40,920 nucleotides of DNA from contig MHHS01000051.1 of NCBI GenBank assembly GCA_001817115.1, positions 1-40,920 of the forward strand. Reading direction: 5' to 3'. Under the pieces are notes generated by a model. It was not told the DNA's origin. It worked only from the letters and a program-made list of their open reading frames with translations, and ran no database searches. The first letter of the stretch is position 1. Every line of letters starts with the position of its first letter. Shown here one piece after another: positions 27,671 through 31,709 of this stretch. A program made the translations under genes and the position numbers. This DNA is from Candidatus Andersenbacteria bacterium RIFCSPHIGHO2_12_FULL_45_11b (GTDB lineage Bacteria > Patescibacteriota > Andersenbacteria > UBA10190).

Positions 27671-28294
27671 ATGCCACAAAATTCTATCAAAAACATTATC
27701 TTCGACGTAAGCGACGTACTCACGACGTATGCGCATGGGCCACAATACTCTAACGAACTGCTGTCAGAAGAAACGGGTGTTTCAATGGACGTAATTAAGG
27801 ATTTTTTCAAGGAATACATAGAAACTGGTCGAAAAGTACAGGGATTATCGTTTGAAGAATTTTGGCCAACAAGAACAGTGGATACGAAACAATTAACATT
27901 GGAAGATGTGAAAAAATCGGGTAAACGGCACGGTGACAACATCGCAATTAACCAACAAATGACTGCACTCTTACAAACATTGCGACCTACCTATCGCCTA
28001 TTCGCACTCACAAACGCATGGAAGCCCGGACATCCGTTTAAATCAAAACTCGAATCGTATTTTGAAGCATTTGTGCAATCATGCGATATTCATTTATGGA
28101 AACCGAATCGAGATGTTTTTGAATACATGATCGAAACGTATAATCTTACACCCCAAGAAACATTATTCATCGACAACGACTTGAAAAACATAGAAATGGC
28201 CCAGCAAGTAGGCATGCACGCAATTCAGTTTTTTACTTTTGAAAAACTTACTGAAGAATTGCGAAATTTTCTAACACCCGGTGTTAGAATTTGA
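27671..28294 (+). CDS. HAD-family phosphatase (YihX-like)
   Basis: IIFDVSDVL, LTN, KP, LFIDND; start at ATG 27671. Confidence 0.88.
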   Translation: MPQNSIKNIIFDVSDVLTTYAHGPQYSNELLSEETGVSMDVIKDFFKEYIETGRKVQGLSFEEFWPTRTVDTKQLTLEDVKKSGKRHGDNIAINQQMTALLQTLRPTYRLFALTNAWKPGHPFKSKLESYFEAFVQSCDIHLWKPNRDVFEYMIETYNLTPQETLFIDNDLKNIEMAQQVGMHAIQFFTFEKLTEELRNFLTPGVRI

Positions 28295-29015
28295 ATTTTT
28301 TATTAAGGTACTCTAGCGAAAGCTGCTCTTCTAATTTCTTGCATTCACGTTCTGTAAGAATTTGCTCCAATTCTTTGGCAATATTTTCGGTAATTATGTT
28401 TTGTTTAGCAAGCGGCCTAATAAAAGATACCAGCTTTTGAGCAAAGTCAGGACTCATATCTATGCCTTGAGTAAGGTAATGGTGAATATTTTTTGCCAAA
28501 ATAGTCTGCAAGCGACTAGCTCGCCACTGCAAGTGCTCAAAAACGTTCTTGCTGAGCGTTACATCAGAATCGAGATTTAAAGTTTTAGGTGAATGAACTA
28601 ATTTCCACGTATGACGAATAATTCCTAAAATACCTGTTTTTTCTAACACATCTGCATCATGAACAATTTTTGCTTCCAAACTTTTTGCTTTAGCAGTTCC
28701 TTCATGAGATGCAACGCATTCGGCAATTTGATCTACATCATCTTTAGAAAGACACAGCGGCTTCAGTATGCTCTTAACAATTTTTTTATTCGTTTCATAA
28801 TTATAATCGTCCCCCGTAGGAAGAGCTGTGTCATGCAAAAAAGCACCGGCAACAGCTATCGGCAGATCGGCTTCCATTTTTTTTGCCATGAATTCTACAA
28901 TAGCAACCACGCGAAGCAAATGCTTATTGCCTTTTGACTTGCCGCCGAAAGCCGCATCGTGATCAATCGCGATGGCCAGTTTTTTTATATCCCGGAGATT
29001 CTGTTTAGTAAGCAT
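28284..29015 (-). CDS. HD-domain phosphohydrolase
   Basis: HLLRV, FLHD, SHEG, IVHDADVLE. Confidence 0.88.
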   Translation of the reverse strand: MLTKQNLRDIKKLAIAIDHDAAFGGKSKGNKHLLRVVAIVEFMAKKMEADLPIAVAGAFLHDTALPTGDDYNYETNKKIVKSILKPLCLSKDDVDQIAECVASHEGTAKAKSLEAKIVHDADVLEKTGILGIIRHTWKLVHSPKTLNLDSDVTLSKNVFEHLQWRASRLQTILAKNIHHYLTQGIDMSPDFAQKLVSFIRPLAKQNIITENIAKELEQILTERECKKLEEQLSLEYLNKKFKF

Positions 29016-29084
29016 AGATAGTAAACTAAGTTGATTTAAAAGAGCTGGCGTCGGTAAAACCTTGGCCAGCCTCGTCGTCCTTCA

Positions 29085-29621
29085 TTAGCCCCTGGATAGA
29101 ATCCAGTCTACCAGTGAATCGATATCAGCACCGCCTTCGTTATTAACAGTGATGCGATTTTCAGTGCTAGCCGGAAATGCTTCGAATATATCCTGAAAAC
29201 GAAGATACATATTGAGCGATTCTTCGGTAGTAAGGATGTGCCCCGTTCGAGCCGTAGCTTGCAATCGTTTTTTAACAACCTCGTAGGGACATTGAATCTC
29301 AATCCAAGTCACTTGAACGTGCCGATCGACGCAACAAGATTCCAGTTGAGTTCTCAGCGAATGCAGATGAAAGACTTCATCCATAATCGCCACCTCAAGG
29401 CCCTCATCAAACCGACCAAAGACGTATTCGAGCGCCTTTTGGTAGTACGACCATCGCAAATCAGGGGGATCAATTTCATGCTTGACCAGAACCGGATCAA
29501 CGTCGGTTTTCTTGAAATCATCAAGATCGACAATCATCGTGTCCGTTTTTTTGCTAACTCCTCGAGAAATAGTAGACTTGCCTACCCCCGGCAACCCGGC
29601 AAACAACAGTAATCGCTTCAT
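29085..29621 (-). CDS. P-loop small-molecule/nucleotide kinase (AAA_33-like)
   Basis: LLLFAGLPGVGKST, DLDD, IMDEVF, KKRLQATAR; SD TAAGGAG. Confidence 0.85.
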   Translation of the reverse strand: MKRLLLFAGLPGVGKSTISRGVSKKTDTMIVDLDDFKKTDVDPVLVKHEIDPPDLRWSYYQKALEYVFGRFDEGLEVAIMDEVFHLHSLRTQLESCCVDRHVQVTWIEIQCPYEVVKKRLQATARTGHILTTEESLNMYLRFQDIFEAFPASTENRITVNNEGGADIDSLVDWILSRG

Positions 29622-29658
29622 CGCCCTACTCCTTATTTGATTTTAACTTCAAAGAACT

Positions 29659-29686
29659 AAAAACTAGCCTCATCGGAGGCTAGTTT
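29659..29686 (-). terminator. Attenuator terminator in the kinase 5' leader
   Basis: Minus strand AAACTAGCCTC-CGAT-GAGGCTAG-TTTTT, about 40 nt upstream of the kinase start. Confidence 0.8.
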
Positions 29687-29710
29687 AAGAAAAAGAACCT
29701 TATTTGCTCT

Positions 29711-29782
29711 CTACCTAAAATCAGCCACCGCAGAAGGCTTAGTATAATAATATGAATATTGAGCAGTATCTTTTAACGACAT
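29711..29782 (-). CDS. Putative attenuator leader peptide MSLKDTAQYSYYYTKPSAVADFR (23 aa)
   Basis: Manual translation; four TAT codons within five positions; ATG sits at the predicted transcription start. Confidence 0.7.
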   Translation of the reverse strand: MSLKDTAQYSYYYTKPSAVADFR

Positions 29783-29789
29783 TGAGTTC

Positions 29790-29818
29790 ATGATAGAGAG
29801 CCTGATCGTTATTGTCAA
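29790..29818 (-). promoter_or_regulatory. Sigma70 promoter of the leader-peptide/kinase transcript
   Basis: TTGACA (29818-29813)-17 nt-TATCAT (29795-29790). Confidence 0.75.
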
Positions 29819-29904
29819 TAAAATGCACCCTTTTCCAGGCTTATTCATTTCCAGAAACATACTAATGCAAAACCTATATGCATAAATATTTTCGTGAATG
29901 TATT

Positions 29905-29940
29905 AAAAAACCTCGAGAAGAAATGAATCTTCTCGAGGTT
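29905..29940 (-). terminator. Terminator of the second ABC exporter
   Basis: AACCTCGAGAAGA / TCTTCTCGAGGTT stem; A-run on + gives a U-tract on -. Confidence 0.85.
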
Positions 29941-29963
29941 CAAATGATCAACTTTCGCTTGCT

Positions 29964-31709
29964 TTATACATATCCGCGGACTTGATGAGCCCAGAGATTT
30001 GCATACATGCCTTCCGCACTCAACAGGTCTTCATGCGCTCCATCTTCGGCAATCTTTCCGTTTTCCATAACGACTATGCGATCCAAACTCATAATCGTGC
30101 TCAACCGGTGCGCAATTACAACCGAAGTACGCCCTCGCAATAGATTGGCAATTGCTTTTTGGATGTACTTTTCAGTTTCGCTATCCAGCGCACTGGTTGC
30201 TTCGTCCAAAAGAAGAATCTTCGGATCTGCAAGTATCGCACGGGCAATAGCAATCCGCTGGCATTGACCTCCAGAAAGCTTCATTCCGCGTTCTCCTACC
30301 ATAGTATCCAGACCATCAGGAAGTTTTTCTATGAACTCCCATGCATACGCTTGCTTGGCTGCCTCGACTACGTCCTCCTCGCTTGCATTCGGACACGCAA
30401 ATGCAATGTTTTCCCGAATCGTACGATGGAAGAGTTGCGGCTGCTGCGGAACAACCGCCATTTGCTGACGCAAACTTTTTTGCGTCACATCGGTGATATC
30501 CTGCATATCGATCCGGATATATCCGGAATCCAGCTCATACAGTCGCATAAGGAGCTTTACGAGCGTACTTTTGCCAGCGCCGGTTCTTCCTACCAAGCCA
30601 ACAGATTGGCCGGGAGGAATCTTCATATCGATTCCGTTAATAGCAAAGCTCTTCTCTGAATATACTGTCCCGTAGTGAAAAGTAAGAGCATGAATGTCTA
30701 TCTGCCCTTCCGAAATCACTAACGGGTGAGCCTTTGGCGCATCTCGCACCTCTGACTCCAGATCAAAGACTTCTGTCATTTCCCTTGCTTCCGCAACGAG
30801 AATAAAAAGTTTTCGAACCGAGTGAACGAACGTCCATAAATGACCCAATATCCAAGCCATATATGTCTGGAAGAAAACCAGATCTCCTGTCGTAATCGTT
30901 CCTTTCGCCCAGCCGCCTATCATCCACCATACGAGGCCGACTTCTGCGACCATCATCATAATCATTTGCATCGCCATGCCTGCGTTTCCTACCATCCACG
31001 CCTTCAAGCGTTTCTGATAGTTTTCAACCACAACAGTATCGAATCGTTTCTGTTCAGATGGCTCGCAGCCGAACGACTTGACCGTGAGATGACTCCCGAT
31101 AGAATCCGCGCATGCACCTCCTACCTTGCTGTCTGCTTCCGCCGATGCTTTTTCGAGTGGATATCTATACTTAATCAGGATGGCGCCAACCGCGAGGAAA
31201 GCGACGACCCACGCACCAAATGCAAACGCGAAGCTTGGCATAGTGCTGAAAAATGCAACAAAGGCAAAGCATAGAATAAGGATACTTCGCCCCACTTCTA
31301 CAAACAGCACATCGATTATTCCTTCGAAAGAATTTCGAAACCGGCCGGCACTTTTTACGAGCGCCCCCGTAAAAGCATTTTCGAAGAAACTAATGGATTG
31401 CCGTTGGATAGCCGCGAAACTGCGCTGATCTAAATCGCGCATAATTCGCGCCTCATACAACGAAAGCGCCACATCGAAGATTCGATATGCCAAGAACGTA
31501 CCAACGCCGAGCATGAGATACTGCCAAAATATCTCCTTGGCCAAGGACACATTTTTCTCTTCCGCCGTAAACACATTTACAATGTTCCTCAACAGAAAGG
31601 GGCGAAGTGATGCAAACGCAATTGCTCCCGAAATAGAGATGCACAATATCACAAACAATAAGTGATACTTGCGCATACTGGGCCAATAGGCACGAAATAC
31701 CGCTAACAT
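29964..31709 (-). CDS. ABC exporter, fused permease/ATPase; paralogue of 24128..25885
   Basis: GRTGAGKST, LSGGQCQR, LLDEATSALD, IAHRLST; SD TAAGGAG. Confidence 0.95.
   Translation of the reverse strand: MLAVFRAYWPSMRKYHLLFVILCISISGAIAFASLRPFLLRNIVNVFTAEEKNVSLAKEIFWQYLMLGVGTFLAYRIFDVALSLYEARIMRDLDQRSFAAIQRQSISFFENAFTGALVKSAGRFRNSFEGIIDVLFVEVGRSILILCFAFVAFFSTMPSFAFAFGAWVVAFLAVGAILIKYRYPLEKASAEADSKVGGACADSIGSHLTVKSFGCEPSEQKRFDTVVVENYQKRLKAWMVGNAGMAMQMIMMMVAEVGLVWWMIGGWAKGTITTGDLVFFQTYMAWILGHLWTFVHSVRKLFILVAEAREMTEVFDLESEVRDAPKAHPLVISEGQIDIHALTFHYGTVYSEKSFAINGIDMKIPPGQSVGLVGRTGAGKSTLVKLLMRLYELDSGYIRIDMQDITDVTQKSLRQQMAVVPQQPQLFHRTIRENIAFACPNASEEDVVEAAKQAYAWEFIEKLPDGLDTMVGERGMKLSGGQCQRIAIARAILADPKILLLDEATSALDSETEKYIQKAIANLLRGRTSVVIAHRLSTIMSLDRIVVMENGKIAEDGAHEDLLSAEGMYANLWAHQVRGYV

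Follow-up and report, generated by a model that had tools for sequence, protein, structure and literature searches.

The contig MHHS01000051.1 of Candidatus Andersenbacteria bacterium RIFCSPHIGHO2_12_FULL_45_11b, a member of the ultra-small Patescibacteria, was analyzed here as one window of 40,920 nucleotides (nt). On its minus strand, a gene coding for a P-loop kinase is preceded by a short leader that combines a tyrosine-rich open reading frame (ORF) with two mutually exclusive RNA helices. We consider it very likely that this leader is a ribosome-mediated transcription attenuator, in which translation of the leader peptide would read the supply of charged tRNA-Tyr and gate the kinase gene. 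What was observed directly, and is described below, comprises the sequence elements and their conservation, covariation of the two helices, rules of spacing and a specificity for tyrosine.

All features of the window were taken from its minus strand (Table 1). The gene for an ABC transporter ends at position 29964 with its own terminator, and a separate small leader unit starts beyond it. The promoter of this unit agrees with the consensus at 11 of 12 positions and was the best of five promoter-like sites within positions 28000 to 31000. The ATG of the leader ORF (29782-29780) lies 7 nt past the -10 box, and its stop codon is a TAG at 29713-29711; the ORF is nested in a listed ORF of 49 amino acids (29711 to 29860). 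Tyrosine is specified at 4 of 6 adjacent codons of the leader, compared with 3.2% of the residues in the long ORFs of the genome. Segment 2, the 5' strand of the antiterminator, begins 14 nt past the last Tyr codon, and a gap of 4 nt separates its end from the stop codon. Segments 3 and 4 make up the terminator, with an 11-bp stem, a 4-nt loop and a T-rich tail (29686-29651; -15.9 kcal/mol). The promoter, ORF and terminator are contained within about 130 nt, and a promoter scan of the stretch from the terminator to the kinase ATG found no promoter-like site that would serve the kinase separately. An earlier, sequence-only reading of this DNA had proposed the promoter TTGACA-17-TATCAT, an ATG at the predicted +1 and a leaderless upstream ORF. 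The first two are borne out at the coordinates given there, and the third agrees with the spacing described below.

Orthologous loci were collected from genome contigs (L002-L011) and metagenome contigs (L079-L123). In 52 of them, the sequence 5' of the kinase extended for 250 nt or more, and 41 of these 52 were non-redundant. A leader ORF was defined as one that starts with ATG, has 8 to 60 codons and lies no more than 330 nt 5' of the kinase start, and it was scored by the number of Tyr in any six consecutive residues. At least three Tyr in six residues were found in 28 of the 41 loci, at least two in 36 and at least four in 11. The reverse-complement control for three or more Tyr gave 4 of 41 loci. 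In 200 dinucleotide shuffles the mean was 0.58 and the maximum was 3; these shuffle statistics overstate the significance because the related leader sequences are not independent. The same count performed for every residue returned 28 loci for Tyr, 10 for Ser, 7 for Asn, 6 each for Ile and Leu, 2 for Phe and 0 for Trp. Tyrosine is the only enriched residue in the leader ORFs. The Tyr codons themselves were TAT (97) or TAC (11), with no other variation, and the leader peptide outside the Tyr cluster differs widely between loci while the frame stays open. A terminator pattern was present in 37 of the 41 loci. Conservation of a Tyr-rich ORF and a terminator upstream of kinase homologues, which the sequence-only reading had proposed as a check, was therefore found. 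The arrangement is repeated before the orthologous kinase genes far more often than in the shuffles or on the reverse complement, and it exceeds chance. Because the Tyr run is conserved in homologous leaders, these results support attenuation.

A covariance model of the leader (R1) gave 42 plus-strand matches in the fetched loci, with E values of up to 1.1e-6. Every match lay on the kinase strand and immediately 5' of the kinase, and two of the loci concerned, L090 and L093, were outside the training set. In 151 sampled genomes of the phylum, the sole match to R1 was the copy in the window. A sigma-70-like site was present no more than 40 nt upstream in 25 of 36 leaders. In 15 of these 25, the distance from the -10 box to the ATG was 6 to 8 nt, as in the window, and in the others it was 13 to 25 nt. 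Since 6 to 8 nt is the expected distance from a -10 box to the transcript start, the leader ORFs with this gap are probably leaderless. Three loci, L011 (2681-2943), L114 and L116, carry two tandem Tyr leaders, each with a terminator, before a single kinase gene; the first tandem leader has its own leaderless-type promoter.

Structure counts were made on an alignment of 32 leaders (A2). RNAalifold yielded the terminator on this alignment, and 8 of its 10 pairs have changed on both sides. In total, 96.9% of the terminator cells were paired, and none of 500 shuffles reached the observed values. Because the T run of segment 2 was broken by gaps in the MAFFT alignment, the antiterminator was counted on its 7-pair core only. 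This core was 90.2% paired, with both-side changes in 5 of 7 pairs, whereas controls slid by 1 to 3 columns were only 25 to 47% paired. A triple covariation, from G-C-G to A-U-A across segments 2, 3 and 4, was found in six leaders. In 30 of the 32 leaders the antiterminator had a z below -1.5, and its mean folding energy was -18.3 kcal/mol; that of the terminator was -15.1 kcal/mol. In the window, segments 2 and 3 pair at 10 of 12 positions by manual count. The minimum-energy fold of the entire window leader contains this pairing and not the terminator, and the two alternatives are about equal in stability (-16.1 versus -15.9 kcal/mol). Both the pairing of segment 2 with segment 3 and the terminator of segments 3 and 4 had been read from the letters alone, and both stand. 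The sequence conservation of segments 2 to 4 is unusually high for an attenuator. Divergent leaders (L006/L102, L123 and the first tandem copy of L011/L114/L116) show the same four-segment logic with another sequence.

The spacing of these elements follows clear rules. The last Tyr codon ends 11 to 19 nt (mode 14) 5' of segment 2 in all 32 leaders. Relative to the first nt of segment 2, the stop codon starts at -1 to +43 nt; it lies 16 to 40 nt before segment 3. This spacing fits a ribosome that would leave segment 2 free while it stands on the Tyr codons and would cover or pass segment 2 at the end of the ORF. In the mechanism that we propose, transcription would start with the A of the leader AUG or with a neighboring nt, which would make the mRNA leaderless, and a ribosome would translate the 23-codon leader. 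When Tyr-tRNA is plentiful, the ribosome would reach the UAG, 4 nt past segment 2, and cover segment 2. Segments 3 and 4 would then form the terminator, and transcription would end before the kinase. When Tyr-tRNA is scarce, the ribosome would pause on the UAU codons, at least 14 nt upstream of segment 2. The free segment 2 would pair with segment 3 once the latter is made, no terminator would form, and RNA polymerase would read into the kinase gene. Translation of the ORF, pausing that depends on Tyr-tRNA and termination at the hairpin are steps that we infer from the arrangement of the sequence. The sequencing runs listed as containing this stretch were of DNA, with none of RNA among them.

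We also modeled the position of the ribosome by masking its footprint and folding the remainder of each leader at equilibrium, with the terminator called favored when its P was above 0.5. Without a ribosome, the terminator was favored in 9 of 32 leaders. When the first Tyr codon occupied the A site, the terminator was favored in 8 of 32 and disfavored in 24 of 32, and with the stop codon in that site it was favored in 22 of 32. In A2, the antiterminator register of the window was off by one column, and the mask result for the window was judged from its structures. These numbers suggest that the default of an untranslated leader would mostly be read-through, unlike that of the trp attenuator. 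Folding of the alternative structures, the other computational check proposed in the sequence-only reading, favors the antiterminator and the terminator; equilibrium mask folding gives only partial support to attenuation.

Several observations weigh against attenuation as we describe it, beginning with the mask folding itself. With the last Tyr codon in the A site, the terminator was favored in 19 of 32 leaders, the window included. In long-ORF leaders (L003 type), about 40 nt separate the start of segment 2 from the stop codon downstream of it. A ribosome that has reached this stop would leave segment 2 uncovered, and the mask model keeps the antiterminator. Given these two misfits, the switch must depend on the kinetics of co-transcriptional folding or on a ribosome pause at earlier Tyr codons. 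The hairpin between segments 1 and 2 is a further weak point. It exists in the window but is weak (-5.1 kcal/mol; z of -0.89 versus shuffles), and it was significant in only 17 of 32 leaders. Of the classic trp/his/phe-type set of pairings claimed for this leader, the antiterminator and terminator hold, and the pairing of segment 1 with segment 2 is weaker than stated. Conservation is also incomplete, in addition to the lack of independence between related leaders mentioned above. Only two clustered Tyr were found in 8 of the 41 loci and fewer than two in 5, and no leader was found at L002, L085, L086, L009, L101, L104 and L108. In L002, L085 and L086, the kinase is located inside an operon, after a gene for a prephenate dehydrogenase-dehydratase fusion.

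The remaining points against this reading come from the genes around the kinase, which we refer to as the island. A terminator-like hairpin, of a GC-rich GGGCTGG...CCAGCCC type and followed by a T run, is present after the kinase in most orthologous loci, so that the kinase may be largely monocistronic. The tyrosyl-tRNA synthetase (TyrRS) gene found in many islands has its own promoter-like site. Taken with the hairpin, this means that the leader demonstrably precedes the kinase alone. In addition, no prephenate dehydratase gene was found in the genome of the window, and the TyrRS-like gene of this genome lies elsewhere and has no leader.

Table 1. Coordinates of the leader unit, the kinase gene and adjacent features in the window
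Feature	Position	Strand	Basis or remark
-35 box TTGACA	29813..29818	-	Read from sequence and promoter scan
-10 box TATCAT, 17-nt spacer from -35 box, 7 nt 5' of leader ATG	29790..29795	-	Sequence and promoter scan
Leader ORF MSLKDTAQYSYYYTKPSAVADFR*, 23 codons plus stop	29711..29782	-	Sequence and ORF list; probably leaderless
Regulatory codons TAT TCA TAT TAT TAT (Y S Y Y Y)	29744..29758	-	Sequence
Segment 1, AGCCUUC	29733..29739	-	Pairing with segment 2 weak in the window
Segment 2, antiterminator 5' strand (GGUGGCUGAUUU)	29718..29729	-	Pairing, fold and alignment
Inner 7-bp hairpin between segments 2 and 3, nested in the antiterminator	29692..29712	-	Fold
Segment 3, partner of segment 2 in the antiterminator and of segment 4 in the terminator	29675..29686	-	Fold and covariation
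Segment 4 (29671-29661) and T-rich tail including conserved GTTCTTT (29657-29651)	29651..29671	-	Terminator scan and alignment
Kinase Shine-Dalgarno AAGGAG	29629..29634	-	Sequence
Regulated 178-aa P-loop kinase gene (predicted target), ATG at 29621	29085..29621	-	ORF list and Pfam AAA_33
Hairpin and T run past the kinase stop codon	29038..29073	-	Sequence and orthologous loci
HD-domain phosphohydrolase (YpgQ/YedJ-like), conserved downstream partner	28284..29015	-	Pfam and clustering of flanking ORFs

A short motif in the tail of the terminator was conserved as well. Of the 41 non-redundant loci, 28 have exact GTTCTTT at a position from -80 to -8 relative to the kinase start, against a background of 3 occurrences in 14,590 nt further upstream. 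Across L002-L123, the motif lies 22 to 38 nt 5' of the kinase start. It is kept even about 50 nt past the terminator (L004, L097, L099 and L011), and also in L002, the locus without a leader. GTTCTTT might pair with the purine-rich ribosome-binding region.

To describe the gene neighborhood, flanking ORFs were clustered and representatives were scanned against Pfam. This covered 34 loci, many of which are incomplete, and the counts are therefore minima. The next gene after the kinase codes for an HD phosphohydrolase, as in the window, in 15 of the 34 loci. It codes for a protein of the low-molecular-weight protein tyrosine phosphatase (LMW-PTP) type with a CX5RS motif in 8, for a member of the inositol-monophosphatase family in 3 and for another protein in 1; in the other 7, the fetched sequence contained no same-strand gene past the kinase. 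Uncharacterized YpgQ/YedJ-type hydrolases are the closest match to the HD protein. The presence of three unrelated phosphatase families in one slot looks like non-orthologous displacement and would imply a functional link between the kinase and a phosphatase activity. Between the post-kinase hairpin and the phosphatase gene, several loci have an AT-rich promoter-like stretch.

Genes connected to tyrosine were also recurrent in the islands. A bacterial-type TyrRS was found in at least 16 of the 34 loci and a prephenate dehydratase in at least 8. Five island genomes contained three to four class Ib synthetase genes each, corresponding to the island TyrRS, a second TyrRS-like protein and TrpRS. 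The genomes holding L002, L004, L007 and L009 have an island TyrRS and a second TyrRS-like gene elsewhere. Those of L002, L004 and L009 are without chorismate synthase, and some islands carry prephenate dehydratase or dehydrogenase genes, which would be orphan last steps of Phe and Tyr synthesis. No Tyr leader was found upstream of the TyrRS-like gene of the source genome, the island TyrRS genes or the L002-type operon. The sequence-only reading had emphasized a kinase as the target rather than an amino acid biosynthesis operon. The kinase is indeed the first gene after the leader, but it is not an isolated target, as the relatives have a phosphatase, TyrRS or prephenate dehydratase gene nearby. 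These conserved neighbors suggest that the kinase has its place in the supply of tyrosine or tRNA-Tyr. The source genome itself is small (0.88 Mb, 45% GC), and its island is without TyrRS. A single tRNA-Tyr gene was detected in it, and on contig C6 (8753-10650) the TyrRS-like gene is located about 1 kb from this only detected tRNA-Tyr(GTA) gene. A tRNA-like sequence lies on the opposite strand directly upstream of the TyrRS-like gene, and no Tyr leader was seen there.

The kinase matched Pfam AAA_33 (PF13671) with 36.9 bits (cut-off of 27) and, weakly, KTI12, CPT, SKI and Zeta_toxin. The Walker A residues G9, P11, G14, K15 and S16 are invariant or nearly so among 34 homologues. We found 125 homologues with 45 to 79% identity, in source-named Patescibacteria lineages; the kinase was not found in 40 related genomes. 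The top NCBIfam match was PSTK (TIGR03574), which at 20.1 bits did not reach the family cut-off of 290.5. In agreement with a shared P-loop kinase fold, a profile built from the 34 homologues had an archaeal PSTK as its best solved relative (E of 2e-6), with an alignment across the whole 178-residue kinase. PSTK differs in having a C-terminal tRNA-binding domain, which is absent from the kinase (178 amino acids versus 259 to 260 in the solved chains). When an AlphaFold model (pLDDT of 87.9) was compared to the PDB using Foldseek, gluconate kinase, 6-phosphofructo-2-kinase, adenylate and APS kinases and PSTK scored about equally. A search of the ESM Atlas returned only generic P-loop kinase neighbors and nothing specific. 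A function as shikimate kinase in a full pathway was rejected, as no chorismate synthase was found in five kinase-carrying genomes. The EPSP_synthase-family matches are presumably MurA.

Taken further, these relationships lead to a speculative proposal, which we regard as improbable. The kinase could be a stripped-down PSTK-like enzyme that, with an interchangeable phosphatase (HD, LMW-PTP-like or inositol-monophosphatase-like), would run a phosphorylation cycle on tRNA-Tyr, Tyr-tRNA-Tyr, tyrosine or an analogue. Such a cycle would belong to an unrecognized pathway that safeguards Tyr decoding in Patescibacteria, beside an auxiliary TyrRS, and would be induced by stalling at Tyr codons.

Other explanations differ from ours in what the leader would sense or in whether it would regulate at all. 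The switch could report damage or loss of tRNA-Tyr, by an anticodon nuclease cut or undermodification, with the kinase and phosphatase acting as RNA end-healing enzymes in tRNA repair. Any loss of decodable tRNA-Tyr would trigger the same stalling logic, and PMC13096801 reports a tRNA-Cys-cleaving toxin that leads to ribosome stalling at Cys codons in mycobacteria. The best solved relative of the kinase, PSTK, is a tRNA-dependent kinase; weak matches were of the KTI12 and polynucleotide-kinase type, a phosphatase gene follows, and just one tRNA-Tyr gene was detected. We nevertheless judge this explanation to be unlikely. There was no RNA ligase in the neighborhoods examined, the kinase is missing the tRNA-binding domain of PSTK, its fold matches are generic small-molecule kinases, and the prephenate dehydratase and dehydrogenase neighbors point to amino acid metabolism. 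To our knowledge, phosphatases of the LMW-PTP and inositol-monophosphatase types are not among the RNA 3'-end healing enzymes.

Alternatively, the leader could sense a translation inhibitor, a TyrRS-directed antibiotic or a tyrosine analogue. The island would then be a module for resistance, with the kinase inactivating the compound and the additional TyrRS being a copy that tolerates it. We hold this to be very improbable. A TyrRS inhibitor would likewise stall ribosomes at Tyr codons, and the two TyrRS-type genes of the island genomes, the weak chloramphenicol-phosphotransferase-like matches (with precomputed PF07931 on several homologues) and the patchy distribution of the kinase (0 of 40 relatives) and leader model (1 of 151 phylum genomes) are in line with such a module. 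However, no conserved transporter or other resistance-type gene was present in the island, a dedicated phosphatase is hard to explain beside an inactivating kinase, and the island of the window genome is without TyrRS. Plain starvation sensing fits the design of the Tyr run equally.

It is less probable still that the leader is a non-translated RNA switch, such as a riboswitch or a protein- or tRNA-binding leader, in which the UAU repeats would act through binding or pairing and the ORF would be incidental. The high conservation of segments 2 to 4 would suit such a switch, as would one subtype (L003, L008, L010 and L115) in which a UAUUAUUA run can pair with a conserved downstream AAUAAUA; most subtypes, and the window too, do not have this partner. 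In 36 of 41 loci the Tyr run is in frame with an ATG that precedes it, and this ATG is often placed where the transcript is predicted to start. The run varies as TAT or TAC only, and the peptide on either side of it changes freely with no break in the frame. No T-box match was found even at E values of up to 10, and no Rfam family reached its gathering threshold in the window. Finally, the complete promoter-ORF-terminator unit of about 130 nt might be taken for a small-protein or small-RNA gene in its own right, whose position 5' of the kinase would have no regulatory meaning. This is almost certainly wrong: all 42 model matches lie immediately 5' of the kinase and in its orientation, the kinase has no promoter-like site of its own between terminator and ATG, the conserved antiterminator overlaps the terminator, and the peptide outside the Tyr run is not conserved.

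A leader-peptide attenuator, the reading that we prefer, has well-known counterparts. Like trpL, pheL, hisL and pheM, the leader contains a short ORF in which codons for the sensed residue are clustered. Its terminator and antiterminator exclude each other, and ribosome position would decide which of the two forms. One of these counterparts, pheM of pheST, is a leader attenuator that controls an aminoacyl-tRNA synthetase operon. Compared to the classical attenuators of Proteobacteria, the leader in the window would sense tyrosine, and its mRNA is probably leaderless. Its 1:2 anti-antiterminator is weak or absent in the window and in 15 of 32 leaders, and its untranslated default would mostly be read-through. 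Furthermore, its first regulated gene would be a kinase, its host belongs to the Patescibacteria, and it matches no Rfam leader family. Using Rfam 15, which includes the T-box (RF00230), we detected no gathering-level match in the window, and none in 15 related loci except tRNAs. At E values of up to 10, the sole leader-family match was His_leader, on the opposite strand and with 16 bits versus a threshold of 49 bits. The tyrS T-box of Firmicutes is a functional analogue, as it senses uncharged tRNA-Tyr through a terminator/antiterminator switch. T-box RNAs, however, bind tRNA directly and without translation, whereas the window leader is about 130 nt long, contains an ORF and has no T-box match.

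Related leaders have been described elsewhere. PMC1262725 notes attenuators on trpS, leuS and pheST, with pheM named, and tyrosine genes under T-box control; it reports no RNA element for tyrosine operons in Actinobacteria. bioRxiv 10.1101/834739 presents leaderless polycysteine short ORFs in mycobacteria as cysteine-responsive attenuators of downstream operon genes. They resemble our leader in being leaderless short ORFs with a run of a single residue and amino acid-responsive attenuation, and differ in that they concern cysteine and Actinobacteria rather than tyrosine and Patescibacteria. PMC4046766 mentions, for aroF of Corynebacterium glutamicum, a putative attenuator leader peptide with Phe-Tyr-Phe and reports leaderless small-ORF transcripts. 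This leader is likewise Tyr containing and tied to aromatic amino acid supply. It has mixed Phe and Tyr codons and DAHP synthase as its target, in contrast to the pure Tyr run and kinase target found here. A full-text literature search, supplementary tables being outside it, returned no description of a Tyr-codon leader attenuator. A tyrosine-specific, probably leaderless attenuator before a kinase in Patescibacteria is apparently undescribed in print, while the mechanism itself is classical.

If our interpretation is correct, the leader would be a Tyr-specific leader-peptide attenuator, a specificity absent from the Rfam leader families. It would also imply that transcription-translation coupling and leaderless initiation work in Patescibacteria, which are mostly uncultured and whose gene regulation is almost without experimental knowledge. 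The switch is short and conserved in sequence and would be open to cell-free coupled assays. For the uncharacterized kinase family, the leader would provide a functional handle, as kinase activity should help when Tyr-tRNA is short, and the conserved partners of the kinase narrow the search for its substrate.

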